In this document: piece by piece, positions 1,790 to 49,416 of the stretch
Position numbering within the stretch: the stretch's first letter is position 1
How the letters are laid out: each line of letters starts with the position of its first letter
Assembly: GCA_964562925.1 (NCBI GenBank)
Contig: CAZLVF010000006.1
Coordinates: 9,319 to 63,721, forward strand
DNA: 54,403 bases
Direction: 5' to 3'
Source of the DNA: an uncultured Candidatus Bathyarchaeia archaeon
GTDB lineage: Archaea > Thermoproteota > Bathyarchaeia > 40CM-2-53-6 > CAVXDP01
Notes under the pieces: model-generated
The model's input: the letters and a program-made list of their open reading frames with translations, nothing else
What the model was told of the DNA's origin: nothing
Database searches by the model: none
Program-made: the position numbers and the translations under genes

Positions 1790-2170
1790 ATGACGTATCT
1801 CGACGTGATCCCAACGTTCGAGATCGCACTCTACGCGTTTGTAGCAGTACTCTTTCTTGTCACCGGCTTCCTCAACTTGAAGGATCTCCAAGCTACTCGC
1901 GAAGAGAAGTGGACGCGACAGGATACAGTAGCCCTGACGCTTCGAACACTCTTCTTCTCGTTTCTGCTAAACTTTCTGTTGATAGTATTAGTTAACGGTG
2001 CGATCCTAGCGTTCACAACAATCTTCAGCTCTACGTTCTCATTCAGGCAGGTTCTACCCTTGGTCCTAACCTCGCTTGAGTTCTCGTTTGCGATGCTCTT
2101 CGTGACTGGCGTGGTCTATGGAATAGCCAAATGGAAGGATTGGTATGATCTCATCGATGCAGAAGACTGA
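1790..2170 (+). CDS. small polytopic membrane protein (hypothetical)
   Basis: 126-aa ORF with three to four long hydrophobic stretches (e.g. IALYAFVAVLFLVTGFL, LFFSFLLNFLLIVLVNGAILAFTTIF, FSFAMLFVTGVVYGI). Its 3' end overlaps the start of the next ORF. Confidence 0.55.
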   Translation: MTYLDVIPTFEIALYAFVAVLFLVTGFLNLKDLQATREEKWTRQDTVALTLRTLFFSFLLNFLLIVLVNGAILAFTTIFSSTFSFRQVLPLVLTSLEFSFAMLFVTGVVYGIAKWKDWYDLIDAED

Positions 2171-4889
2171 GCAGAACCAAGAGTTCAAGTATTGGTGGGT
2201 TCGACGGCCGGTCACAAGAAAGCTGCTGAGCGTTCCACTCTATTTTACCACCAGAAACTATCGGCTATGGCGTAACGCAAGATTGACACCACGCAAACTT
2301 CGAAGGTTGATACGCGCTATAGATGAGAAGTTCCCGAAGACGCGGGAGCAGCTCATTGGAAGAGACAATGAATACCAACAGATTATGTCGAGTATCAGCT
2401 TTCACGTGGTAAGAGACCCGTACGTGCGAGACATCTTTCGAAACGCGCCACCTCCAAAATTCTTTATCCTGAAAGGTTCCAGCGGCACTGGAAAGTCTCT
2501 CTTAGCTGAGGTGTGCATAAGGGAAGGAGTCATACATGGGGTAAAGAATGGCGTAAACGTTCAGCCGATGTCTATAAGGGGATCCGACGTCTTCGACCCG
2601 TACTACGGCCAGTCCGCGAGAAACTTGGCAAGTATCTTCGACAACGCGTTCAAAACCCCTACGATCCTGTTCGTCGACGAGTTCGAGAGCTTCGGAAAGA
2701 AAGTCGACAAGAACGCCTCGACGCTTGTACAGTCCGAGGACTTACGTGTCCAGAGTATATTCATCAGCAGTCTAAGAAGAATACTGGATACAAAGGTCAG
2801 AGCGGCAGCGATAGTTGCCACTAACATGTTCGAATCGATAAGAGAAGACGTTAGAAGACGTGCCTTTGTAGTAGACCTTGATCAAAACGTAAACCGTGAG
2901 ATGCTCCTAGCGATCCTTACGTCTGAGCTTCAAAACTTTGGATGGAACTATCTCGACGCTGAACAAGTTATGGTAACGCTTGAAAAAGCCGTAAGCGTCT
3001 ACAGGCAGACGCAGCTGACACCCTTCGATATTGTTGATGCATGCTACAAAGTCAGGAACAAGAAGATAGAACCGCTGCGACAGAGCCTCTTTGTAAGGTT
3101 TGAGGAGCGAAGCAAGGCCCTCCGAACGTACAAGGTTACGCTTGAAGACTTTGAGCTGGCGGCGAGAGAACTTCGAGGCTACGTCGAGACCGAGAAGAGC
3201 AGCGAAGTCATGAGCTCCATCCTGAAGATTAAACCTTCCATCACATATGATGACGTGGGCGGTCTATTCGGAGTGAAGGAGAGGATCTTCAAGGCTATCT
3301 CTCTAAGCCTCCGACCTGATCTGGTGAACAAGCTTGGATGGATACCGCCGAAAGGGTTCATACTCTGGGGCGAACCGGGATGTGGAAAGACACACATTTC
3401 AAAGGCTATAGCAAGAGAGAATGGCGCCGCGTTCTTCTACGCTCCGGCAGCACAGCTATTGATTAATGCCAAGTGGGTTGGCGAACCGGAGAAGAACGTC
3501 AAGGATCTGTTCGCCATAGCTAGAAAGACTGCTCCGAGCGTGATCTTCTTCGATGAATTCGATATAATCGCTGGAAAGAGAAAGGGCGATCCCGTAGGAG
3601 ATAAGATAACCGCGCAGATACTTACCGAACTTGACGGTCTTCAGCCCTTAGAGAACGTAATCGTAATCGCCGCCACAAACAAGCCTGAGATGGTTGACGA
3701 TGCTGTTCTTAACAGGGTCGAGCCCAATATCCTCGAGATACCCCTGCCAAAGAACGATGAAGAAAGATTTGACATAGTCGAGATTCATCTCAAACAGAAT
3801 GTGGCTCACCTACATCCAGAAGTGACGACGAAGAAAGTTCTTAGCGTCATGAAGCAACATCGTGTAGTATCGCCTAGGGTGATGGCGGAGATCATACGGG
3901 AAGCCAACCGCTTAAGATCTCAAGAGATAGTATCCGCATGGGAGACTCACAAGGGAGATAGCGAATACAGGTTACGTGCAGCAAAGATGTTCAAAGAAGA
4001 CCTTCAGAGACTTGGAGAAGTCCTAGATATGTGTGGACGAATGGGAGAACAGGTGATCTCCGAAGAGGAAGTATCCAGCGACAACTACAAGATCCGTCTC
4101 TATCACTTTGAGAAGGCGGCGCTACAGCTTGAGCAAGACCTTGACAAAGAGTTGATGGAAGCCCAAGAAAGCCTGATGCTCGATAAGCCTCAGAAGGGCA
4201 TCGCCTACGGTGTAGGAACAGACCCCCAAGGAAGACGTGGAATCATCCTAGTAGTAGAATGCACTGTTAACAAACAAGGCACAGGCAGAGTAAGTGTAAC
4301 GGGCGCAGCAAAGACGGCGGTTCTTGGTCCGGCAACAGCGGTCGAAGATGTGAGTGTAGTCGAGAGCGCAACGAATGTTGTCGAATATATACGAAACCAT
4401 CTGCGGGAAAAATTGAAACTTGACATATCCAAGTATGACTTCACGTTCCAAGTCATCAGCCCACTAGAAGGCGCAGCCGGTATGGGGGTGAGCGGCCCAA
4501 GCCTAGGAGTAGCATTCAGCGTAGCAGCCATATCTGAATTATCCGGCATACCGGTCGAACCTACGGTTGTGATGACGGGCAAAGGCGACATAAAAGGAAA
4601 CGTTGGGCCTGTCGGCGGAGTAGGATGGAGGGGAGCAGGAAAATTCCTCGCAGCAACACGGACAAAGAAGATCAAGGTTCAGAAGTTCCTTCTTCCAGAG
4701 TGGAACTATGAAAAGTCGGCAGATGAATGGGAAGTTCTCGAAGAGAAGAAGATTAGCGTAGTTCCTGTAAGATCCCAGATAGAGGTGTGGGAGCATGCCC
4801 TAGGTGTGAAGGAGGGCCAGATAATCCGGACGCTCGACTTGAACATAAACACACCAAGAGTTGAGGTAAAGGAATTACACTCGATCTAG
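2145..4889 (+). CDS. tandem AAA ATPase fused to a Lon-type (S16-like) protease domain
   Basis: 914-aa ORF. AAA module 1 has Walker A GSSGTGKS (aa 111-118, nt 2475-2498), Walker B ILFVDEFE and IVATN. AAA module 2 has GEPGCGKT (aa 409-416, nt 3369-3392), VIFFDEFD and IAATNKP. The C-terminal ~200 aa resemble the Lon protease domain: GVSGPSLGVAF (Ser786, nt 4500-4502) and MTGKGDIKGNVGPVGGVGWRGAGKFLAA (Lys833). Confidence 0.85.
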   Translation: MISSMQKTEQNQEFKYWWVRRPVTRKLLSVPLYFTTRNYRLWRNARLTPRKLRRLIRAIDEKFPKTREQLIGRDNEYQQIMSSISFHVVRDPYVRDIFRNAPPPKFFILKGSSGTGKSLLAEVCIREGVIHGVKNGVNVQPMSIRGSDVFDPYYGQSARNLASIFDNAFKTPTILFVDEFESFGKKVDKNASTLVQSEDLRVQSIFISSLRRILDTKVRAAAIVATNMFESIREDVRRRAFVVDLDQNVNREMLLAILTSELQNFGWNYLDAEQVMVTLEKAVSVYRQTQLTPFDIVDACYKVRNKKIEPLRQSLFVRFEERSKALRTYKVTLEDFELAARELRGYVETEKSSEVMSSILKIKPSITYDDVGGLFGVKERIFKAISLSLRPDLVNKLGWIPPKGFILWGEPGCGKTHISKAIARENGAAFFYAPAAQLLINAKWVGEPEKNVKDLFAIARKTAPSVIFFDEFDIIAGKRKGDPVGDKITAQILTELDGLQPLENVIVIAATNKPEMVDDAVLNRVEPNILEIPLPKNDEERFDIVEIHLKQNVAHLHPEVTTKKVLSVMKQHRVVSPRVMAEIIREANRLRSQEIVSAWETHKGDSEYRLRAAKMFKEDLQRLGEVLDMCGRMGEQVISEEEVSSDNYKIRLYHFEKAALQLEQDLDKELMEAQESLMLDKPQKGIAYGVGTDPQGRRGIILVVECTVNKQGTGRVSVTGAAKTAVLGPATAVEDVSVVESATNVVEYIRNHLREKLKLDISKYDFTFQVISPLEGAAGMGVSGPSLGVAFSVAAISELSGIPVEPTVVMTGKGDIKGNVGPVGGVGWRGAGKFLAATRTKKIKVQKFLLPEWNYEKSADEWEVLEEKKISVVPVRSQIEVWEHALGVKEGQIIRTLDLNINTPRVEVKELHSI

Positions 4890-4989
4890 CCAAGTCTCAA
4901 CCTTCGACAGACAAAACCTTCCCCTGTGAATCAGAGTAAAACTTAAATCTACTCTCATGACGCTTTTGACCCGAAAAGGTGAGCTATGA

Positions 4990-6630
4990 ATGTCTTATCT
5001 TACAGGTCAACCTGTTCTAATTCTGAAGGAGGGCGCCTCCAGGAGCAGAGGCAGAGACGCCCAAAGAACAAACATGATGGCCGCAAGGGTTGTTGCCGAT
5101 GTTGTGAAGAGCACCCTAGGCCCTCGTGGAATGGACAAGATGCTTGTTGACACTCTGGGCGATGTTACCGTGACTAATGACGGAGCCACGGTTCTCGACG
5201 AGATCGATGTCCAAAACCCGTCTGCTAAGATGATGGTGGAAGTTGCCAAGACACTGGACAAAGAGGTTGGTGATGGAACAACTACAGCTGTCATTTTGGC
5301 AGGCGAACTTTTGAAGAGGGCTGAGGAACTGCTCGATCAGGATGTTCATCCAACAACCATCGTTGCGGGATACAAGAAGGCAGCTGAAAAAGCGATCCAA
5401 GAGTTAAACGAGATAGCTACCGCCGTAAGCCTTGATGATAGGGCCACCCTGAAGAAAGTGGCTGTAACGTCCATGCTTGGAAAAGATCTCGGTGGAGCAC
5501 GGGAACACTTTGCAGACATAGCCATAGACGCGGTACGGCAGGTTACGGAGAAAAGGGGTACATCCATTTTCGCGGATATTGATAACGTCCAACTTGTGAA
5601 GAAGGAAGGAAAGAGCCTTCTCGACACAAGCTTGATCAAGGGAATAATAGTTGACAAGGAAGTGGTTCATCCGGGGATGGCGAAGACTGTGAAGAACCCA
5701 AAGATGGCTCTGCTAGACTGTGCGCTCGAAATAGAAAAGACAGAGATTAGCGCCGAGATCCGAATTAGAGATCCGACTCAAATGAAGGCTTTCCTAGACG
5801 AAGAGACGAGAATGATGAAGGAGATGGTAGACAAGATTAAGGCTTCCGGAGCTACGGTCGTACTCTGCCAGAAGGGAATAGACGACGCGGCACAGCATTT
5901 CTTGGCTAAAGAAGGGATCATGGCTGCTAGGCGAGTGAAGAAATCGGATATAGAGAAGCTTGCTAGGGCCACAGGTGGAAAGATAGTTACAAACTTGGAT
6001 GATCTGAAACCTGGCGACCTTGGAAATGCTGAGCTGGCCGAGGAACGTAGAATAGGCGATGACAAGAACATCTTCATAGAAGGATGCAAGGATCCAAAAT
6101 CGGTCTCCGTTCTTATCAGAGCAGGCTTGGAAAGGCTTGTGGACGAAGCTGAAAGATCGCTCAAGGACGGTCTATACGTCGTAGCTGATATTGTGAACAA
6201 GAACAAGGTCGTCGTCGGAGGCGGAGCGGTTGAAACAGAACTGGCGAAGAGGCTGAGAGACTACGCAGCCAAGATCGGTGGAAGAGAGCAGCTCGCAATC
6301 GAATCGTTCGCAGACTCAATGGAGATAGTGCCCAGAACGCTAGCTGAGAACTCAGGCCTCGACCCGATCGATATAATGGTCGACCTGAGAGCCGCACACG
6401 AAAAGAAAGACGGAATCAACATTGGAGTAGACGCCCTAAGCGGAGGCGTGAGAGACATGGAGAAACAGGACATCCTAGAACCTTTAAGAATGAAAGAGCA
6501 AGTGGTCAAGTCCGCTACTGAAGCAGCTAGCATGATATTGAGGATAGACGACGTTATCGCTGCAGCTAAACCGCCACCAATGCCAAAGGGTGGACCACCC
6601 GGCGGACCGGGTGGAATGGGAATGGAGTAA
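4990..6630 (+). CDS. thsA: thermosome subunit (group II chaperonin)
   Basis: 546-aa ORF with the group II chaperonin signature ([35 protein letters not shown]) and a GGMGME C-terminal tail. AGGTGA lies 8 nt upstream of the ATG. Confidence 0.95.
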
Positions 6631-6644
6631 AGGAGGGGATATAG

Positions 6645-8306
6645 ATGGCAGAAGCCATACCTGCAACCATAAGCGGTCAACCTGTACTAATCCTCAAGGA
6701 AGGAACTCAACGAACCCGAGGTAAAGAAGCGCAGAGAGCGAACATAATGGCAGCCAAAGTTGTTGCCGAGGCTGTGAAGACGTCGCTCGGACCTCGAGGA
6801 ATGGACAAGATGCTCGTCGCCAGCTTTGGAGACGTTACAATCACAAACGATGGAGCAACCATACTCAAAGAAATGGAGGTTCAACACCCAACAGCCAAGA
6901 TGATGGTCGAGGTAGCTAAGACAACGGACGATGAGGTGGGCGATGGAACTACCAGCGCCGTAGTCCTAACCGGCGAACTTGTAAGCAAAGCTGAAGAGCT
7001 GATCAACAAGGACGTACACCCGACGGTGATAGTTGACGGTTATAGACGCGCCCAAGAGAGGGCCTTGCAGATATTGAACGAGGTAGCAGTGAAAGTCGAC
7101 CCGAACGATAGGGAGACGCTGAAGAAGATCGCGAAAATTGCCATGGCTACCAAGCTCATATCGGAGAGCAGAGATCCTATGGCGGACATAGCTGTGGACG
7201 CTATGCTCCAAGTTGCAGAGAAGACCCCTGAAGGCTACAAAGTCGACGTGGAAGATGTGAAGGTCGAGAAGAAGGCTGGAGAATCCCTAACCGAGACAAA
7301 ACTGATTCAGGGCGTAGTCTTGGACAAAGAAGTCGTCCATCCAGGAATGCCAAAGAGGGTTGAGGATGCCAAGATTGCACTACTGAACTGCGCGCTCGAG
7401 GTTGAGAAGACAGAGTTCGATGCAAAAATCAACATTCAGAATCCTGAGGAGATGAAAGCCTTCCTCGACGAGGAGGAGAAGATTTTGCGAGACATGGTCG
7501 AGAAGGTGGCTAAGTCAGGCGCGAACGTCCTCATCTGCCAGAAAGGCATCGACGACGTAGTGCAACACTTCTTAGCAAAGAAGAACATTCTAGCGGTTCG
7601 GAGAGCTAGCGAGAAAGATATGGAGAAACTGGCAAGAGCATCCGGAGCAAAAATAGTAACCAACCTAGACGATCTAAACCCAGAAGACCTAGGCTACGCG
7701 AAACTCGTCGAGGAGAGAAAGATCGCAGATGACAAGATGACCTTCGTAGAAGGATGCAAGAACGCCAGAGCCGTTGCGATCCTGATCAGAGGAGGAACCC
7801 AAAGGTTCGTGGACGAAGCCGAGAGATCACTCCACGACGCCCTCTGCGTCGTAAGAGACGTTATCCGCGACCCCAGAGTCGTTGCAGGCGGAGGCGCTGT
7901 CGAAGTTGAACTGGCAAGCCAGCTAAAACGATGGGCAGGGAAACTATCGGGAAGAGAACAACTCGCTGTGCTCGCCTTCGCTGAGGCGTTAGAAGGTCTT
8001 CCTCTAATACTTGCGGAGAACGCAGGCCTCGACCCATTGGATATTATAGTTGAACTCAGAGCTAGCCACGAGAAAGGCCAGAGATGGTTTGGAGTCGACC
8101 CGTTCGAAGGGAAGGTCAAGGACATGATGAAAGATAACGTCGTGGAACCGGCGGCTGTGAAAGAGCAGATACTGAAATCAGCCAGCGAAGCTGCCTCTAT
8201 GCTACTGAAAATAGATGATATAGTAGCTTCTGGGAAAGCGAGAGAAGAAGCGAGACCGCCGAAAGGACCCGAGGAAGAGGGCGAGAGAGGCTCGGAGTTC
8301 GACTAG
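6645..8306 (+). CDS. thsB: thermosome subunit, paralogue (group II chaperonin)
   Basis: 553-aa ORF carrying the same signature set ([35 protein letters not shown]). Its tail is acidic ([11 protein letters not shown]) instead of GGM. It starts 14 nt after thsA. Confidence 0.95.
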
Positions 8307-18077: not shown

Positions 18078-18741
18078 CTGTGGACGTTACCTCTCTGACT
18101 AGTATGGCTATATCGCCAAACTCTTGGTCTTGTTGTAACGTTATCTTTCCTTGGATCGCAAGGAACAGGAGCATTATGAAGTCTCTTACTATGTCTAGGA
18201 AGCGTTTATTTCCAGTTAGGTTGAGAAACGATATCGGGCCTTCTCTCTTGGCTCTCTTGACTAGGTCTGAGTAGAACTCTCCTATGTGCTTGTCGATGTT
18301 CATGAGAAACTCGTCTAGGTGCTTCAGTACGGCGGGCGGTGTTAGGAGAGGCTTCTTTTCCAAGAGAGCTAACCGTTCGCTTTCCAACACTTCCTCTAGG
18401 GTTCTTAGCACCTCAGAGATCGATGTTGACGTATACTCGAACCTTATCGGCATGGGCAGGGCAGGAGGAACGTAGTCTTGAGGTCTGGGTTGAGGAGGTT
18501 TTGGAGGCTCCTCCATCTTGAGAACCTCCTCTGACTTCAGCCTGTGGATTATCGATGATGACAATAGAGCGATTCCTGAGGCGGGGAAGTCGATGTATCC
18601 TTTCTCGTTCATCTGAGCCAAGAAAGAGTTCAGTATGTTGGTCAGGTTGACATCCCATGGCTTCAGCCTATGCACCCTTAGCAGGTCGAATAGGATGACG
18701 TAGGGTGGGCGGAGCCAGAACGGTTTCTCCAGCTCTGTCAC
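18067..18741 (-). CDS. scpA: segregation and condensation protein A (ScpA, kleisin)
   Basis: N-terminal ILFDLLRVHRLKPWDVNLTNILNSFL and C-terminal IVRDFIMLLFLAIQGKITLQQDQEFGDI fit the ScpA kleisin. It overlaps the smc stop by 4 nt. Confidence 0.85.
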   Translation of the reverse strand: MTELEKPFWLRPPYVILFDLLRVHRLKPWDVNLTNILNSFLAQMNEKGYIDFPASGIALLSSSIIHRLKSEEVLKMEEPPKPPQPRPQDYVPPALPMPIRFEYTSTSISEVLRTLEEVLESERLALLEKKPLLTPPAVLKHLDEFLMNIDKHIGEFYSDLVKRAKREGPISFLNLTGNKRFLDIVRDFIMLLFLAIQGKITLQQDQEFGDIAILVREVTSTVAA

Positions 18742-21700
18742 GTTCGTGCCTCCGGCATAGGAAGCGAAACGGCCTGGGAGACTCCTTCTTGGATGTAGAC
18801 CCCGTAGATCCTGTCGGCCCTAGAGATGGTTATGTCCCTTAATGAGACTACGATGAACTGCGACCCTCTCGAGCGTTCTCTAAGTAGATCAGCCAGCCTC
18901 TGTGTGTTGAGAACGTCGAGATGAGCGTCGATCTCGTCAAATATGTAGAAGGGCATCGGGTTGATCGATTGAAGTGCTAGAATGAAACAGACCGTTGCAA
19001 CAGACTTCTCGCCTCCACTCGCGCTGCCGATTGTGAGTTCGGCTTTTCCGGGGAACCTCAGGTAGATGTCCATTCCGCCCTTGAACGGGTCTTCCTGGTT
19101 TTCAAGTAGAAGCCTTCCAGATCCGCCGTTGGATATCTTGGAGAATATCTCTTGGAAGTTTCTGTTCACGCTGTTGAAGGCTTTCATAAATGTATCGTAC
19201 TTCTTTCTCTCCAGCTCGTTCATGAAGTCTATTATGGTAAGCTTTTCATTCGAGAGTTCGTTTATTCTGGTGGAGAGCTGCTTATAGATCTCCTTCTGTT
19301 CTTCATACTGAGTCACGGCAAGCTGGTTCACCGCTCCGATCTCTTCAAGTTCACGTTTAATCAGGTTAAGCGTCGATTCAGCCTCGTTCACTTCTTCAGA
19401 GTCGGCCTGAACCACATCTTGATATCCGAGCTCCTGAAGCTCTTTTAGAAGATATGAGGCCTGTATCTCCTTCTCCTTGAGTTCTCCACTCAACTGGTTT
19501 GTTTCTGTATTAAGTTGCTCATACTTTTCAAAGAGCGCCTTCGTTTGCGACTCTAAGAATTTGAGTTTCGTTTGAAACTCGTCTCTAGTATTTCGGACTG
19601 TAGACAGTTCTTCAGAGATTGATTTGCGTTCGACCTCGAGTTGGGAGAGCTGGTTGAGTGAATCGTCTACGTTTGTCCTCTCTTTCTGGATGCTTTCTTT
19701 TAGTGTGGTTATCTCTTCCTCAAGCTCCGAGACCCGTGTTCTCATCTGTTGGAGGTTTGGTTCTAGGATCTGAATCGATGACTCGAGCGTTCCGATCCTG
19801 CTATCGATCTCTGAGAGTTTCCGTTGGAGTTCGCTGGTTTCTTTCGACAATTCTAGGTGCTTCTGCTGAGATTGGGAGAGCTTTGCAGGATCAACTTTCG
19901 ATCTAGCGGCTTCTCTTCTCTTTATCAGCTCGTCAAGTCTACTTCTAATCTTAGATCTTCTACCACCCATTAGTACGTTTTGATTCTTTTCGTTATGGAC
20001 TTCGACGCTAAGTTCGTCGATCCTCCTGAGAATGTTTGAGAGTGTACTCTTCGCTCTTTGAAGGCTCGTTTCAACATTTGACATCTCTCCATCTATGTGA
20101 ACGATCGATCCTTCAGAGTGAACTTTGTTTTCTTTGAGTGCGTCAAGCTCGGCCTGAAGTCGTTCGACATCCTCTTCGCTCTTGGTGACTAACGTTTCAA
20201 GTGACTTTATCATTCTTTCAAGGTTCTCGACGGCTAGAGTCTTTGAAATCAAAAATTCGATGTCAAGGGGTTTTCGATAGTATCCTCCTTCTATTCCTCC
20301 TTCAGGCTCGTAGACTTCGCCACTTAATGAGACAGCCCTGACGCCGTTCACGGCTGCCATATACGCTGCTTTTTGGCTGTTTGCTAGGACTGTATCTCCA
20401 AAAACAAAGTTGACTGCAGGTTTCAAGGGTTCTTCAACTTGGACGAGGCTTGCAATCGGTCCGATGATGTCAGGGTCGTCCTCGGGCCAATTAACGCTAG
20501 GGATGGATGAGAGGCTCTCCAATGGGACAATCTTTATCCTGCCCATTCTTGTTCGTTTCAGGCTCTCTATGCATTGGACAGCTGATTCTACGTTTTTGAC
20601 AACAAGAGCTTTCATCCATCCGGCTGAAGCTGTTTCCAACGCCTTCCGATAATCCTCTGGAACCTTAACCAGTCTATCGAGCCTTCCAACCACATCTGGA
20701 ATTGCTCCGGCCCGGCCTAGTTCTTCTACCGATTGTAGAGCCTTCTCTTCTGCTCCGAAGGTCTGAACAACGTCCTTTTGAATCTCAAACTCGAAAGTAG
20801 TCGCAGAAGCTCTCTCCACGATCTCCTTAGATTCTCGAATATCACCCAGTTTGCTCTCTTTGAGCTCTGCGTGATCTCTGATCTTCTTCTCTATCTCCTC
20901 CAGTTGTTTCTGCTCCTCGATGCGTAGATTTGCTAGATCTTTAGATCTCTTCTCTATCTCTTCTATCAGCCGTTCATACTCGATCTTCCTACTCTCAAGG
21001 GTCTTTAGATGTCCGAAGACAAGTTGGAGCTTAACCGAGCCTGCGTCTATCTCTGCACCTAGCTTCGCCTCTTCGCAGGACAGTTCATTGATACTATCTT
21101 CCAGATTCTGCAGTTCTTTGTTGAAGGCATCAACCGTCCTTGCAGCGTCTTGGACATCTTTCCATATCTCGGTCTCAACCGTCGTCTTTTCGGTAAGTAC
21201 AGTATACAGGTTCTCTCTGGCTTCTCTCAGCCTTAAGAGCTCAGCCTTGTGGCTTTCAACGGTCTTCACAACTTCGTCTATCTGCTTTTCAAGGTCTTGC
21301 TTCTCCTTTTCAACTCTCTTCAGTCGCGTCTCGCTGGAGCCGGTTTCTGTCTGAGACTTTGCTATCTCCCTAGATCGCTCCCCGATCGTTCGCTCAACCT
21401 CGAACATCCTAGCTGTCCATTGATCAACAGTCTCACGTTCAAGCCTCTGTTTCTCATCCTCGATCTGGACTTTCTCATTTGAAACTCTGTCTCGCTCCTG
21501 TCTTACCCTCTCGGCTTCGACTCGCCTCTTTTCGGAATACTCTCTCTTCTTTGATGCTTCTTCCTGTAAGCTCTTGATCCTGCTCGAAAGCATGAGAGCT
21601 TTAGACCGGTTGAACTCGTCCTTGAGAAATCTATACCTTAAGAAATCGTTTCTCTCTCTTTCGAGAGATTCGACGCGGGATCTTACCTCATCTACCTTGG

Positions 21701-22274
21701 CTGATGCAACCTTCAGGTTCACGTCTGCCTGCTGTAATTGAACCTGAGCCTCAGCCTTCTTCGCATCGTAGACGGCGATTCCTATCATATCCTCAACGAT
21801 CTTTCTTCTCTCTTCAGGTGTAACCTCCGCTAATCTCGTGATCGCATGCTGCGGTACAATGTTGAAGCCTGTAACCTCTATACCGGCCGAGGAGAGAATC
21901 TCAGTAACCTGCTTTCTAGGTATCCTGCGTCCGTTGATTCTGTATACTCCCTCTCCACCCCTGACGAACTCTCTCGATACAGTAACCAAGTCGGAATCGA
22001 CCGGGATCCGTCTATCCGAGTTTTCGAATTGAATAGCCGCATAGGCAGAGCGCAGGTGGGTTTGAGTTGTCTTGGAAATGAGGTCTCCAAGAGACCCGCC
22101 GCGCAACTCTTTCGGGCTGAGTTCACCTAGAGTGAACTTGACGCTGTCCACTATGTTGCTCTTTCCGGAACCGTTGGCTCCTGTGATGACGGTGAAGCCT
22201 CTATCTAATGACAGTGAGACCTTCTTGCCAAAGGTCTTGAAACCTCTCAGGTCGATTCTTTTGATATAGACCAA
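18738..22274 (-). CDS. smc: chromosome segregation protein SMC (canonical, full length)
   Basis: 1178 aa. It has Walker A GANGSGKSN, long coiled coils, a hinge (GPIASLVQVEE...AVSLSGEVYEPEGGIEGG), the signature SGGEKSVATVCFILAL, Walker B FYIFDEIDAHLD, and QFIVVSLR. The start is TTG. Confidence 0.95.
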   Translation of the reverse strand: MVYIKRIDLRGFKTFGKKVSLSLDRGFTVITGANGSGKSNIVDSVKFTLGELSPKELRGGSLGDLISKTTQTHLRSAYAAIQFENSDRRIPVDSDLVTVSREFVRGGEGVYRINGRRIPRKQVTEILSSAGIEVTGFNIVPQHAITRLAEVTPEERRKIVEDMIGIAVYDAKKAEAQVQLQQADVNLKVASAKVDEVRSRVESLERERNDFLRYRFLKDEFNRSKALMLSSRIKSLQEEASKKREYSEKRRVEAERVRQERDRVSNEKVQIEDEKQRLERETVDQWTARMFEVERTIGERSREIAKSQTETGSSETRLKRVEKEKQDLEKQIDEVVKTVESHKAELLRLREARENLYTVLTEKTTVETEIWKDVQDAARTVDAFNKELQNLEDSINELSCEEAKLGAEIDAGSVKLQLVFGHLKTLESRKIEYERLIEEIEKRSKDLANLRIEEQKQLEEIEKKIRDHAELKESKLGDIRESKEIVERASATTFEFEIQKDVVQTFGAEEKALQSVEELGRAGAIPDVVGRLDRLVKVPEDYRKALETASAGWMKALVVKNVESAVQCIESLKRTRMGRIKIVPLESLSSIPSVNWPEDDPDIIGPIASLVQVEEPLKPAVNFVFGDTVLANSQKAAYMAAVNGVRAVSLSGEVYEPEGGIEGGYYRKPLDIEFLISKTLAVENLERMIKSLETLVTKSEEDVERLQAELDALKENKVHSEGSIVHIDGEMSNVETSLQRAKSTLSNILRRIDELSVEVHNEKNQNVLMGGRRSKIRSRLDELIKRREAARSKVDPAKLSQSQQKHLELSKETSELQRKLSEIDSRIGTLESSIQILEPNLQQMRTRVSELEEEITTLKESIQKERTNVDDSLNQLSQLEVERKSISEELSTVRNTRDEFQTKLKFLESQTKALFEKYEQLNTETNQLSGELKEKEIQASYLLKELQELGYQDVVQADSEEVNEAESTLNLIKRELEEIGAVNQLAVTQYEEQKEIYKQLSTRINELSNEKLTIIDFMNELERKKYDTFMKAFNSVNRNFQEIFSKISNGGSGRLLLENQEDPFKGGMDIYLRFPGKAELTIGSASGGEKSVATVCFILALQSINPMPFYIFDEIDAHLDVLNTQRLADLLRERSRGSQFIVVSLRDITISRADRIYGVYIQEGVSQAVSLPMPEART

Positions 22275-36881: not shown

Positions 36882-38822
36882 ATGATAAAAGGCATCACCC
36901 TTCAGAACTTCATGTCTTACGACCACGCGTATGTACCACTGGAGCAGGGGCTAAACCTTATCTGCGGCCCCAACGGCGCCGGCAAATCCTCTATACTCTT
37001 GGCCATATCGGTTGTTCTAGGCCAAACCTACACCGAACGCGCTAGGAGACTGAGCGACCTCATCAGACGAGGCCAAGACCAAGCTAGAATAACGATACAA
37101 TTCGACAACACACCGAAGCAGGGACGCAGACCCTTCTCCCAGTATCATATGGATACGGTGAGTGTAACAAGGGTTCTGAAACGCACAGGCGACTACATGT
37201 ATCTGATCCAGAATCGCCCCGCGTCGAAGACTACCGTACTTGAAGCGCTTAACAGGCTTGGACTGAACCCGGACAATATGTTGGTCATAATGCACCAGTT
37301 GATGGTTGGAAGGTTTAGCTCCATATCCGCTCAAGAAAAGCTTCGGATGCTTGAAGAAGTCGTCGGCTTCGAATCGTATCGAACCGACGTGCTTGAGGGA
37401 CAGCATCGGTTAGGGCAGGCTTCAAGCGAAGAAGAAAACCTCGTGAATATCCTCCGGTCCACACAAGAGACCTACGATTATTGGAAGAGAGAGTACGCCA
37501 AGTATCAAAGAAAGAAAGAGCTCCAGTCAAGACTCGATGAGCTACAGAGAGAACTTCTCTGGGCAAAAGTCGAGAAGAAGGAAGGAGCGCTATCCAAACT
37601 CGAAGATAGAATCAACCGTCTGAAACGTTCACTCGAAACTACCGGTCTGAAGGCTTCCGAGGCGAAGGATGAGAGAGAAAAGCACAGTCAAGAATTGGCC
37701 TCAAGCAGGAAGAGGATGAAATCACTGCGGGACGATCAGTTGGCGGAGACTCGAAACGTTGCGATACATGAGACAAACCTCGAATGGATCTCAAAGCTAA
37801 CTATATCCAACCTAGCTGAAAACCGACCTAGTCATCTGGATGAAAACTCGACACAAGTAGTTGACGGCCCGGAAACGATCGTAGACGATGCGCGTCGACT
37901 GGAAGAGCTTCAAAAACTGAAAGAATCCAATCGAAGACTTGAGTCGATCACGGCAGACATAGCTAAACTCGCAGATCAAATAGACCAGGATCTCGCATCC
38001 GTCGTAGACTCCAGCGTTAGATCTGAGGTCGAGTCTTTCAAGATCGGACTGCTCAAAGAGCAGATCGAGCATTTAGAAGCTGAGAGGATTGCAGCACTTG
38101 AGGAGCTGGAACCTCTCAGAACTGAGGCTGAGAAGCTTGGTTCTAGAATCAAGACATCACGAAGAAACTTGGATATAGTGGCTGAGATCAACACGGTCCA
38201 GGAGCAACTCAAGCCATATGCCAACGTTTCCGAAGATGTGGAGAAGATGTTTACGTCCTACACCGGGATGCTTGAAGACCTGAAGGAGAAGGCTGAGCTT
38301 GTCAAGAGGAATAAGCAAGAAGTCCAGGAAGAGTTGAACAAGCGCCTAGAAAAATGGAGGGAGGTAATCGAACAGTTCTTCGACCAGCTAAGCGAGAGAT
38401 ATAGCGATCTCCTAGCTGAGGTTGGAGGAAGTGGAGCCGTCAGGCTGACCAACGGGCACGATATCGAGAAAGCTGGCATCGATCTTCTGGTGGGCTTCAA
38501 GGGTAGCGGTCCGATGCCTCTGGACTCTTTTACTCAGAGCGGAGGTGAACGGAGCGTGGCCCTCATGGCGTTCCTGCTTGCACTTCAACAGTACGTGACC
38601 TGTCCCTTCCGTGGAATCGACGAGTTCGATGTTCATATGGATCCAAGGAATAGGGAGGCTGTCTCAAGGCTGATCGTCTCAAGCTTCGCGGGAACAAGAA
38701 ACGGGCAGTATGTAGCTATCACTCCAAGCCAAGTCGTAATCAAGGATAGTGACGTACACGTTATAGTCGTACAGAATATTGAAGGCCGGTCCATAGTCAG
38801 CGAGGTGAGGCGGAATGATTGA
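36882..38822 (+). CDS. short SMC-like ABC ATPase with Smc5/Smc6-like head motifs, no hinge, no zinc hook
   Basis: 646 aa. The N-terminal head has ITLQNFMSYDHAYVPLEQGLNLICGPNGAGKSS (Walker A, nt 36966-36992) and the Q-loop region NPDNMLVIMHQ. About 335 aa are coiled-coil-like, with a ~35-aa Pro/Gly-containing apex (aa ~300-335). The C-terminal head is QSGGERSVALMAFLLALQQYVTCPFRGIDEFDVHMDPRNRE...GQYVAITPSQV. There is no CxxC. Confidence 0.85.
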   Translation: MIKGITLQNFMSYDHAYVPLEQGLNLICGPNGAGKSSILLAISVVLGQTYTERARRLSDLIRRGQDQARITIQFDNTPKQGRRPFSQYHMDTVSVTRVLKRTGDYMYLIQNRPASKTTVLEALNRLGLNPDNMLVIMHQLMVGRFSSISAQEKLRMLEEVVGFESYRTDVLEGQHRLGQASSEEENLVNILRSTQETYDYWKREYAKYQRKKELQSRLDELQRELLWAKVEKKEGALSKLEDRINRLKRSLETTGLKASEAKDEREKHSQELASSRKRMKSLRDDQLAETRNVAIHETNLEWISKLTISNLAENRPSHLDENSTQVVDGPETIVDDARRLEELQKLKESNRRLESITADIAKLADQIDQDLASVVDSSVRSEVESFKIGLLKEQIEHLEAERIAALEELEPLRTEAEKLGSRIKTSRRNLDIVAEINTVQEQLKPYANVSEDVEKMFTSYTGMLEDLKEKAELVKRNKQEVQEELNKRLEKWREVIEQFFDQLSERYSDLLAEVGGSGAVRLTNGHDIEKAGIDLLVGFKGSGPMPLDSFTQSGGERSVALMAFLLALQQYVTCPFRGIDEFDVHMDPRNREAVSRLIVSSFAGTRNGQYVAITPSQVVIKDSDVHVIVVQNIEGRSIVSEVRRND

Positions 38823-49329: not shown

Positions 49330-49416
49330 GGGCCCGTAGCTCAGCTAGGTCAGAGCGACAGAACAAGGTCGAAGCTCATAACCTGCTGGTCCCCGGTTCG
49401 AATCCGGGCGGGCCCA
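49330..49416 (+). tRNA. tRNA-Met/Ile2 (CAT anticodon) with a putative 12-nt non-canonical intron
   Basis: The read is GGGCCCG-TA-GCTC-AGCTAGGTCA-GAGC-G-ACAG-[AACAAGGTCGAA, 49362-49373]-G-CTCATAA-CCTGC-TGGTC-CCCGG-TTCGAAT-CCGGG-CGGGCCC-A. The acceptor, D and T arms are perfect. The anticodon arm closes only if 12 nt are removed between positions 30 and 31, which leaves an A27:C43 mismatch. No CCA is encoded. Confidence 0.7.

Follow-up and report, generated by a model that had tools for sequence, protein, structure and literature searches.

Two overlapping genes in a 54,403-nucleotide (nt) stretch of contig CAZLVF010000006.1, from an uncultured Candidatus Bathyarchaeia archaeon, raise the question of whether a double AAA motor, a Lon-type protease domain and a small membrane protein work together as a single degradation machine. 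The whole of this stretch is referred to below as the window. The upstream gene (open reading frame 1, ORF1) encodes the membrane protein and the downstream gene (ORF2) the ATPase-protease. The two overlap by 26 nt, or by 14 nt if ORF2 starts at Met5 (2157), in agreement with the first-pass annotation of the same DNA. It is likely that they encode one membrane-tethered, ATP-driven unfoldase-protease, presumably hexameric, with a dedicated partner of three transmembrane (TM) segments; it would act in the manner of FtsH or LonB, although with other components. The first-pass annotation had left the choice between such a self-contained machine with a trans-acting anchor and a protease-dead scaffold; the former is now supported by the upstream partner observed in every lineage examined and by a natural fusion of the two proteins in Asgard archaea, while the conservation of Ser786, Lys833 and the Walker A/B motifs speaks against the latter. 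The two genes are located as follows.

1790-2170, + strand: ORF1, the partner gene, encoding an integral membrane protein of 126 amino acids (aa), short form; based on the ORF, hydropathy, homologues and the Asgard fusions
2145-4889, + strand: ORF2, the ATPase-protease gene, 914 aa; based on Pfam, NCBIfam, PDB sequence search and AlphaFold with Foldseek

Tandem AAA modules and a Lon-type protease domain

The ORF2 protein is composed, in order, of a basic N-terminal helical region, two AAA modules (D1 and D2), a helical linker and a Lon S16 domain, with the following coordinates.

2184-2435, + strand: N-terminal helical region, aa 14-97, from the alignment and AlphaFold; W17 and W18 invariant
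2442-3134, + strand: AAA module D1, with Walker A at 2475-2498, pore loop PYYGQ at 2598-2612, Walker B at 2664-2687 and arginines R237-R239 of the second region of homology (SRH) at 2853-2861
3252-3989, + strand: AAA module D2 including its lid, with Walker A at 3369-3392, pore loop KWVGE at 3471-3485, Walker B at 3540-3563 and the single SRH arginine R524 at 3714-3716
3993-4175, + strand: family-specific helical linker, aa 617-677, with AlphaFold helices 617-632, 652-661 and 665-677; leads to the Lon domain
4182-4814, + strand: Lon S16 protease domain, aa 680-890, with the Ser786 codon at 4500-4502 (GPSLG) and the Lys833 codon at 4641-4643 (GGVGWRGAGK)

Both AAA modules are of the classical type, as first proposed. 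The Pfam AAA family is found twice in the ORF2 protein (E 2e-49) and the 60 best PDB sequence matches all are classical AAA proteins (VAT, p97/Cdc48, NSF, AFG2 and Rix7; best E about 1e-74), with VAT, p97 and Cdc48 as the best. The NCBIfam CDC48 model TIGR01243 is colinear with aa 62-677, at 214.5 bits against a cut-off of 802.65. The AlphaFold model of ORF2, computed with an alignment of 73 sequences, displays a mean predicted local distance difference test score of 81 and is matched by Foldseek to the D1-D2 tandem of p97/Cdc48 over 600-650 columns with 24-26% identity. No Pfam match to the CDC48_N double-psi barrel (PF02359) or to CDC48_2 (PF02933) was obtained for the ORF2 protein, whereas both are found in true Cdc48 hits (P0108-P0120).

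Residue conservation was scored across the alignment of 73 homologues, which covers 30-88% identity. The two complete Walker A/B modules (GSSGTGKS/ILFVDEFE and GEPGCGKT/VIFFDEFD) and the motifs PYYGQSARN and KWVGEPEKN reported previously are all present in the sequence. The Walker A residue K117 of D1 and the Walker B pairs D178/E179 (D1) and D470/E471 (D2) are invariant, and the Walker A position K415 of D2 is a lysine in 72/73 homologues. Aromatic pore loops are kept in both rings (Y-Y-G in D1, K-W-V-G in D2), and R237-R238-R239 are invariant in D1, where they belong to a compact, Vps4-like SRH. The arginine finger of D2, previously taken to be missing, is lost in part: the first Arg of the RxGRFD motif is replaced by Asn or Asp in the main clade (N523 in the window), but R524 is retained in 73/73 homologues. 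D2 of the most divergent group (33% identity) displays the canonical R-x-G-R-F-D. The region formerly described as a helical linker of about 130 aa had to be divided, since part of it is the alpha-helical lid of D2 (helices 538-615 of the AlphaFold model) and the helices within 617-677 are those that connect to the Lon domain; Y648 and H654-F655 are kept in the alignment of this linker. TM segments were called with a 19-residue Kyte-Doolittle window at a threshold of at least 1.6. By this measure no membrane-spanning segment occurs in ORF2, whose highest mean is 1.49, as the first reading of the ATPase had stated.

The assignment of the C-terminal domain to the Lon S16 type was borne out by a profile hidden Markov model search, in which aa 680-886 were matched to Pfam Lon_C (E 2.4e-14; score 53.8 bits, gathering cut-off 21.1). 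The top match of a phmmer comparison of aa 641-914 with the PDB is the protease domain of A. fulgidus LonB, with E values of 2.4e-11 (1z0b) and 6e-11 (1z0c, 1z0e, 1z0w). This alignment places Ser786 opposite the first Ser of GDSAS and Lys833 opposite the Lys of GGVTQ-KIEAA, so that the two candidate residues named at the outset fall on the LonB dyad positions. An AlphaFold model of aa 640-900 alone reaches a predicted template modelling score of 0.82, and its Foldseek matches (E 1e-14 to 1e-17, target-normalised template modelling score about 0.8) are about equal for LonA, LonB and LonBA; they include LonA (5e7s, 4ypm), T. onnurineus LonB (3k1j), B. subtilis LonBA (8dvh), A. fulgidus LonB, E. 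coli Lon and human LONP1.

The residues G784-P785-S786-x-G788 and G824-G825-...-G830-x-G832-K833 are invariant in 73/73 homologues and Thr811 of the MTG motif is found in 66/73, while position 787 alternates between Leu and Ala within the family. The invariant Pro785 before the Ser defines an A-type catalytic centre by published criteria (PMC9569914). The spacing between Ser and Lys is exactly 42 residues in both LonA and LonB (PMC9569914) and 46 residues here, which gives four additional residues before Lys833 (GGVGWRGAGK against GGVTQK) instead of the six counted earlier. Given that Ser786 and Lys833 both coincide with Lon dyad positions in the alignment and do not vary among the 73 homologues, a dead site is unlikely and the pair is predicted to form an active dyad.

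The membrane partner and its junction with the ATPase gene

The features of the partner and of its junction with ORF2 are listed below.

1796-1882, + strand: TM1 of the partner, aa 3-31, by Kyte-Doolittle
1925-2038, + strand: TM2 region of the partner, aa 46-83, preceded by the motif W-[ST]-x-x-D-[ST]-x-A-L; by hydropathy and alignment with Asgard N-termini
2048-2128, + strand: TM3 of the partner, aa 87-113, by Kyte-Doolittle
2129-2170, + strand: acidic C-terminal tail and stop codon of the partner; also contains, in the +1 frame, both candidate ATPase starts (2145 and 2157), as well as the Shine-Dalgarno (SD)-like GGAAGGA
2157-2159, + strand: Met5 ATG, the more conserved candidate ATPase start; TTG or ATG is kept at position 4/5 in relatives

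Out of the three to four TM helices initially attributed to the partner, three hydrophobic stretches were recovered and no fourth. They are followed by an acidic tail, KWKDWYDLIDAED, predicted to be cytosolic and carrying a net charge of -3. A Pfam search of the ORF1 protein gave no match. About 85 homologues of 124-127 aa and 53-74% identity exist, all labelled hypothetical.

The association of this partner with the ATPase-protease is observed throughout the lineages examined. Lookups by exact protein covered Bathyarchaeia, Nezhaarchaeota, Methanomethylicaceae, a 'Sulfolobales' metagenome-assembled genome (MAG) and two distant groups (38% and 33% identity). A same-strand, multi-TM ORF without Pfam match lies directly upstream in every family member examined in this manner, and the remaining neighbours differ between these lineages. 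A metagenome scan was also performed and yielded 80 loci; it was seeded with the alignment of the linker and Lon domain, whose motifs are family-specific, as opposed to the generic motifs of the AAA modules. The upstream membrane ORF is present in 51/51 of the loci that contain the 5' end of the ATPase gene (10 at about 80%, 16 at about 60% and 25 at about 40% identity). An additional contig search seeded with the full-length alignment, and hence with generic AAA motifs, returned ordinary Cdc48-type paralogues only and was superseded by the two approaches above. The small membrane ORF is thus kept beside the homologues in 51 metagenome loci and six further lineages, a conservation on which the first-pass annotation had made the novelty of its finding depend, and ORF1 is a real, dedicated partner gene.

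Two forms of the partner were distinguished. Short forms of 124-126 aa (one ORF being called at 142 aa) occur in the clade of the window and in Bathyarchaeia. In long forms of 254-318 aa, the same three-TM core is preceded by a signal-anchor and by an extracytoplasmic, beta-rich domain of about 140 aa; examples are found at L083:2205-3026, L085:2223-3026 and L087:2211-3020 and in the upstream ORFs of L135-L170. Pfam searches of four long-form partners gave sub-threshold hints only for the ectodomain (PKD and DUF4842, E about 0.01). Two loci of the 38% group, L088 and L172, share a neighbourhood composed of TGS-domain GTPase, RDD, SUI1, partner, ATPase-protease, TFIIB and actin-family genes, which suggests vertical inheritance in that lineage.

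The strongest evidence for a dedicated partnership is a natural fusion. In Odin-, Hod- and 'Prometh'-archaeota, the length of the family members is increased by about 100 aa, the partner being fused in-frame at the N-terminus of the ATPase. This additional segment is homologous to ORF1 along its whole length (BLASTP E 4e-17 and 3e-16) and shares with it the motifs W-[ST]-x-x-D-[ST]-x-A-L and Y-[GA]-[IV]-A-K-...-Y-[DE]-L-I-D-E. The closed 1.4-Mb Odinarchaeum genome contains a single ORF of 1012 codons with no separate partner gene upstream. At the fusion junction, only three residues separate the partner tail YELIDEE from the ATPase motif FKPWW, which predicts that the acidic C-terminus of the partner would stand beside the basic N-region of the ATPase in the two-protein form. 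The split (TACK) and fused (Asgard) forms considered together therefore predict which parts of the two proteins touch.

In the clade with 60-100% identity, the conserved partner tail, the overlap and the +1 frame of ORF2 relative to ORF1 are observed in 26/26 loci. The ORF1 stop precedes the W17 codon by 7-31 nt in 24 of these 26 loci and by 58 and 64 nt in the remaining two. The start codon of the ATPase is formed by codons of the conserved partner tail, and an SD-like GGAGGGG or GGAAGGA, spelled by the partner codons for K-W-[RK]-[GD], is frequent 8-15 nt upstream. The frame relation is +1 or +2 in the 40% group, where the genes merely abut (1-nt overlap in L088), and the genes are 62 nt apart in the single locus examined from the 33% group (L089). 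The start assigned originally, ATG 2145, is present in the window, where it is formed from TAT-GAT, but this sequence is TAC-GAT in 9/10 close relatives surveyed, and an 89%-identical homologue (P0003) starts at a TTG equivalent to position 4. Because ATG 2145 is not conserved while TTG or ATG at position 4/5 is retained, Met5 (2157) is the safer choice, and the conserved start probably lies near it. Gene callers disagree on this start: a 100%-identical protein (P0002) was called at 860 aa.

Proposed mechanism and rival explanations

The proposed mechanism can be outlined as follows. A hexamer with two stacked classical-AAA rings (D1 and D2) would thread the substrate into the Lon-type Ser786-Lys833 chamber of the same chain. 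ORF1 would act as a three-TM anchor with an N-out/C-in topology, and its acidic cytosolic tail would adjoin the basic Trp-Trp N-region of the ATPase and keep the D1 pore entrance against the membrane. The charge complement between ATPase aa 14-66 (net charge +14) and the partner tail is counted in favor of this contact. Starting at the membrane, the order would be anchor, N-region, D1, D2 and protease, a polarity identical to that of FtsH. The D1 pore, turned towards the membrane, would take in the substrates, and their degradation would follow in the Lon chamber at the far end. The expected task is the extraction and degradation of membrane or membrane-proximal proteins, for quality control or regulated turnover. 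Co-translation of both genes from a single mRNA is probable: the ATPase start falls within the final codons of the partner, and an SD-like GGAGG often precedes it.

A more specific version of this mechanism is conceivable, if rather speculative: a hitherto unrecognised archaeal membrane-protein dislocase-protease, in which a Cdc48-type double-ring motor tethered by an integral-membrane receptor would pull proteins from the bilayer and degrade them in its own Lon chamber, the optional ectodomain sampling the extracytoplasmic side. If true, such a dislocase-protease would be the prokaryotic, self-contained counterpart of Cdc48-driven extraction, similar to endoplasmic-reticulum-associated degradation. 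It would occur in lineages of both TACK and Asgard and represent a fifth Lon subfamily, one that joins the classical-AAA and Lon lineages.

A number of points weigh against the membrane-tethered unfoldase-protease. The four-residue insertion before Lys833 is absent from all characterised Lons. D2 hydrolysis may be weak or differently organised in the main clade because the first Arg of RxGRFD is lost (N523). The main-clade partner profile, searched with hmmsearch against the 38%- and 33%-group partners only, gave E values of 0.0014 (5.9 bits) and 2; the partners of these two groups are alike in position and architecture, but sequence homology is not demonstrated. The WW-basic region is replaced in five proteins (P0213, P0215, P0218, P0221 and P0222) by long charged N-terminal extensions which are apparently soluble. 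None of the 11 runs listed with the locus is an RNA run, all being metagenomic DNA (as guessed for the kind of run). Finally, the substrate class is suggested purely by analogy with FtsH and LonB.

The role of the partner could also be understood otherwise. Instead of a passive anchor, it could be the sensor, adaptor or substrate of a regulatory protease, recruiting the ATPase-protease or being degraded upon an envelope signal, much as membrane anti-sigma factors undergo regulated proteolysis or as FtsH is controlled by adaptors. The signal-anchor and beta-rich ectodomain of the long forms could sense something outside the cell, and suggest that the partner is also a sensor or adaptor in some lineages. 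Sequence divergence is more rapid in the partner than in the ATPase (53-74% against 81-89% identity within the closest clade), and the ectodomain is dispensable, the forms of the window, Bathyarchaeia and Asgard being devoid of it, which suggests a modular add-on. The covalent Asgard fusion is nevertheless better suited to a permanent subunit or anchor than to a substrate, and the partner of the window itself has no ectodomain. This alternative, which overlaps with the membrane-tethered machine as an anchor may double as adaptor, is considered unlikely. It is far less probable that both ORFs are one gene, either expressed by programmed +1 ribosomal frameshifting in the TACK versions or divided by a sequencing or assembly error. 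The fused Asgard form and the constant +1 frame within the 60-100% clade are compatible with this idea. The same split is however found in 26/26 independent loci of that clade, from many assemblies, and is not an error; ORF2 always has its own start codon in the overlap, often with an SD-like motif; and no conserved slippery site for +1 P-site tRNA re-pairing precedes the ORF1 stop, the last sense codon being variable (GAC, GAA, GAG, GAT, TAC, TTC or CAG). The constant +1 overlap, the separate start codons, the variable frames in the distant groups and the lack of a slippery site consequently point to two genes, presumably coupled, over frameshifting or assembly error.

Two further explanations concern the activity of the enzyme and its biological context. 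A catalytically dead Lon domain would reduce the protein to an unfoldase or a scaffold. The departure of GPSLG from the canonical GPSAG, the insertion before the Lys and the absence of the first SRH arginine in D2 could be read in this manner. Leu and Ala however alternate at position 787 within the family, and no variation is observed in Ser786, Lys833 and the glycines flanking them across 73 sequences with identities as low as 30%, T811 being present in 66 of them, a degree of conservation unexpected at a dead site; this explanation is thus very improbable. An anti-phage defence or accessory-island system combining an AAA ATPase and a Lon-like protease, comparable to the BrxL or IetA/IetS types, is evoked by matches of the PADLOC IetA models to the D2 region (E 1.6e-35) and of NCBIfam IteA (E 2.5e-31). 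These matches are limited to the generic AAA core, with 109 bits against a cut-off of 510 for IteA, and the partner has no PADLOC match. The flanking genes (citrate synthase, thermosome-like ORFs, SMC and DinB) and the absence of a specific PADLOC match are in favor of a housekeeping character, and the spread over Bathyarchaeia, Nezha-, Verstraete-, Odin- and Hodarchaeota, together with the protein identity and local synteny common to close relatives (L088 and L172), fits a mostly vertical inheritance. A defence function is accordingly regarded as extremely unlikely.

Known systems, family spread and chromosomal setting

All described Lon subfamilies (A, B, C and BA) associate the S16 protease with a single AAA+ module of the Lon type (PMC9569914). 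LonB (MEROPS S16.005) resembles the window family in being archaeal, membrane-associated and ATP-dependent (the last two properties being predicted here) and in that its chain ends with an S16 Ser-Lys domain. LonB contains one AAA+ module, a TM hairpin between Walker A and Walker B and an Asp before the Ser ([ED]GDSA[ST]) (PMC9569914), whereas the window family displays two classical AAA modules, an enzyme without TM segment, Pro785 before the Ser and a spacing of 46, the anchor being a separate or N-terminally fused protein. The A-type centre (G-P-S) of the window family is shared with LonA and LonBA, and both are fold matches (5e7s and 4ypm, E about 6e-17, for LonA; 8dvh, E 4e-16, for B. subtilis LonBA). 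The membrane anchor of LonBA is located at the N-terminus (PMC9569914), as in the Asgard fused form. Both subfamilies differ from the window family, in which a Cdc48-like D1-D2 tandem takes the place of the single Lon-type AAA+ module and the spacing is 46 instead of 42. No Pfam match to LON or LON_substr_bdg, corresponding to the N-terminal LON domain of LonA, was found in ORF2, which carries a short basic helical region instead, and the TIGR00763 'lon' score is 62.6, the cut-off being 608. While Firmicutes are the only known source of LonBA, the window family is archaeal, with an anchor that is separate in the window and in cis only in Asgard. LonC has a degenerate ATPase site and an ATP-independent action, whereas both Walker A/B sets are intact in the window family.

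For aa 62-677, the best matches in both sequence and structure are Cdc48/p97/VAT, which have the same colinear classical AAA D1-D2 tandem and a pore loop in each ring. In archaea, the protease fed by Cdc48/VAT is a separate one, the 20S proteasome. Unlike these proteins, the window family has no N domain, displays compact Vps4-like SRH boxes (RRR in D1, NR in D2), contains its protease in cis instead of docking on it and is predicted to be membrane-tethered by a dedicated partner. FtsH is a functional analogue, with an N-terminal anchor, a classical AAA motor, a C-terminal protease and a pore towards the membrane. In FtsH, a single AAA ring is combined with an M41 zinc metalloprotease and the anchor is always in cis, whereas the window family has two rings, an S16 serine protease and an anchor which is usually a separate polypeptide. 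No Pfam match to Peptidase_M41 was obtained in ORF2, and the TIGR01241 score is 139 against a cut-off of 600. To our knowledge, archaea lack FtsH; by analogy, the module could fill part of the FtsH niche in these organisms and would be their second membrane-bound ATP-dependent protease system. ClpAP and ClpCP likewise deliver substrates from two stacked ATPase rings to a serine protease chamber; they differ in that Clp ATPases belong to another AAA+ clade, ClpP is a separate 14-mer and Clp machines are soluble.

The protein falls outside LonA, LonB, LonC, LonBA, Cdc48/VAT and FtsH by the features that define them, and it is rated as a new Lon subfamily and a new architecture of AAA+ proteases with a dedicated membrane partner. 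As far as we know, classical-AAA proteases were previously represented only by FtsH, a metalloprotease, or by unfoldases docking on a separate proteasome. The family joins a Cdc48-like double ring and a Lon protease in one chain and is thus a natural chimera of two ATP-dependent protease lineages. The inability of the first-pass annotation to place the protein in a named Lon subfamily holds against the published criteria (PMC9569914). No name or description of a tandem classical-AAA Lon was found in the searchable literature, Lon classification papers included, most subscription journals lying outside the search; work on the Asgard ESCRT system, on Cdc48-family phylogeny and on archaeal dark matter does not mention the Lon fusion. 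Lon-like-Ms of Methanobrevibacter was considered as an earlier description and rejected, being a different protein with a single ATPase.

A profile of the linker and Lon domain was compared to a representative library of 1.84 billion proteins. About 20 clusters were obtained at E<=1e-30, and about 35 clusters cover the whole of this region before generic Lons start near 1e-17. The family spans Bathyarchaeia, Nezha-, Verstraete-, Odin- and Hodarchaeota and Thermoprotei MAGs; it is small in sequence space, yet phylogenetically broad in archaea. Its members are annotated as 'AAA family ATPase', 'SpoVK/Ycf46/Vps4 family' or 'hypothetical' only. The reservation made initially, that the architecture could turn out to be a widespread and already named family, applies to its breadth but not to its naming. 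The organism-named hits are restricted to MAGs and Candidatus taxa, which may explain why the family is uncharacterised; a thermophilic or Asgard homologue should be suitable for biochemistry and cryo-electron microscopy.

Some members depart from the common layout. In L172 (38% group, 776-kb contig), the Lon domain is a separate ORF of 195 aa (5174-5761), located 14 nt after a 719-aa AAA-AAA ORF (3001-5160). This split is either genuine or due to an assembly indel, the contig name suggesting, without showing, a long-read assembly. Three other proteins (P0094-P0096) look like the same split form. A divergent member of the representative library (P0227, 1120 aa) displays a C-terminal extension of about 200 aa after the Lon domain with an HExxH motif, AIVHEIDHAIMW, possibly a second, metallopeptidase-like domain.

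The closest named relatives of the ORF1 and ORF2 proteins are Bathyarchaeia, and the locus is carried solely by sediment metagenome runs; the window is chromosomal DNA, with freshwater or other sediments as its source. The gene content of the window comprises citrate synthase, SMC, a Rad50-like ATPase, DinB, a PAS histidine kinase and two thermosome-like ORFs. An SMC protein of 1178 aa with a hinge domain is encoded at 18738-22274 (- strand) and a Rad50/SMC_N-like ATPase of 646 aa at 36882-38822 (+ strand); these ordinary chromosome-maintenance genes confirm a chromosomal, housekeeping setting. Two tandem ORFs at 4990-6630 and 6645-8306 (+ strand), about 100 nt 3' of the protease gene, were read as thermosome (group II chaperonin) subunits from their translations alone. 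This proteostasis neighbourhood, formed by the protease gene and the thermosome-like ORFs, is not kept in other lineages. Opposite-strand ORFs within 2145-4889, such as 4205-4675 (156 aa), are regarded as mere shadows of the strongly conserved coding region. An Rfam tRNA match of 49 bits and 87 nt is found at 49330-49416 (+ strand), where ARAGORN reports none, and may represent an intron-containing or otherwise atypical archaeal tRNA.

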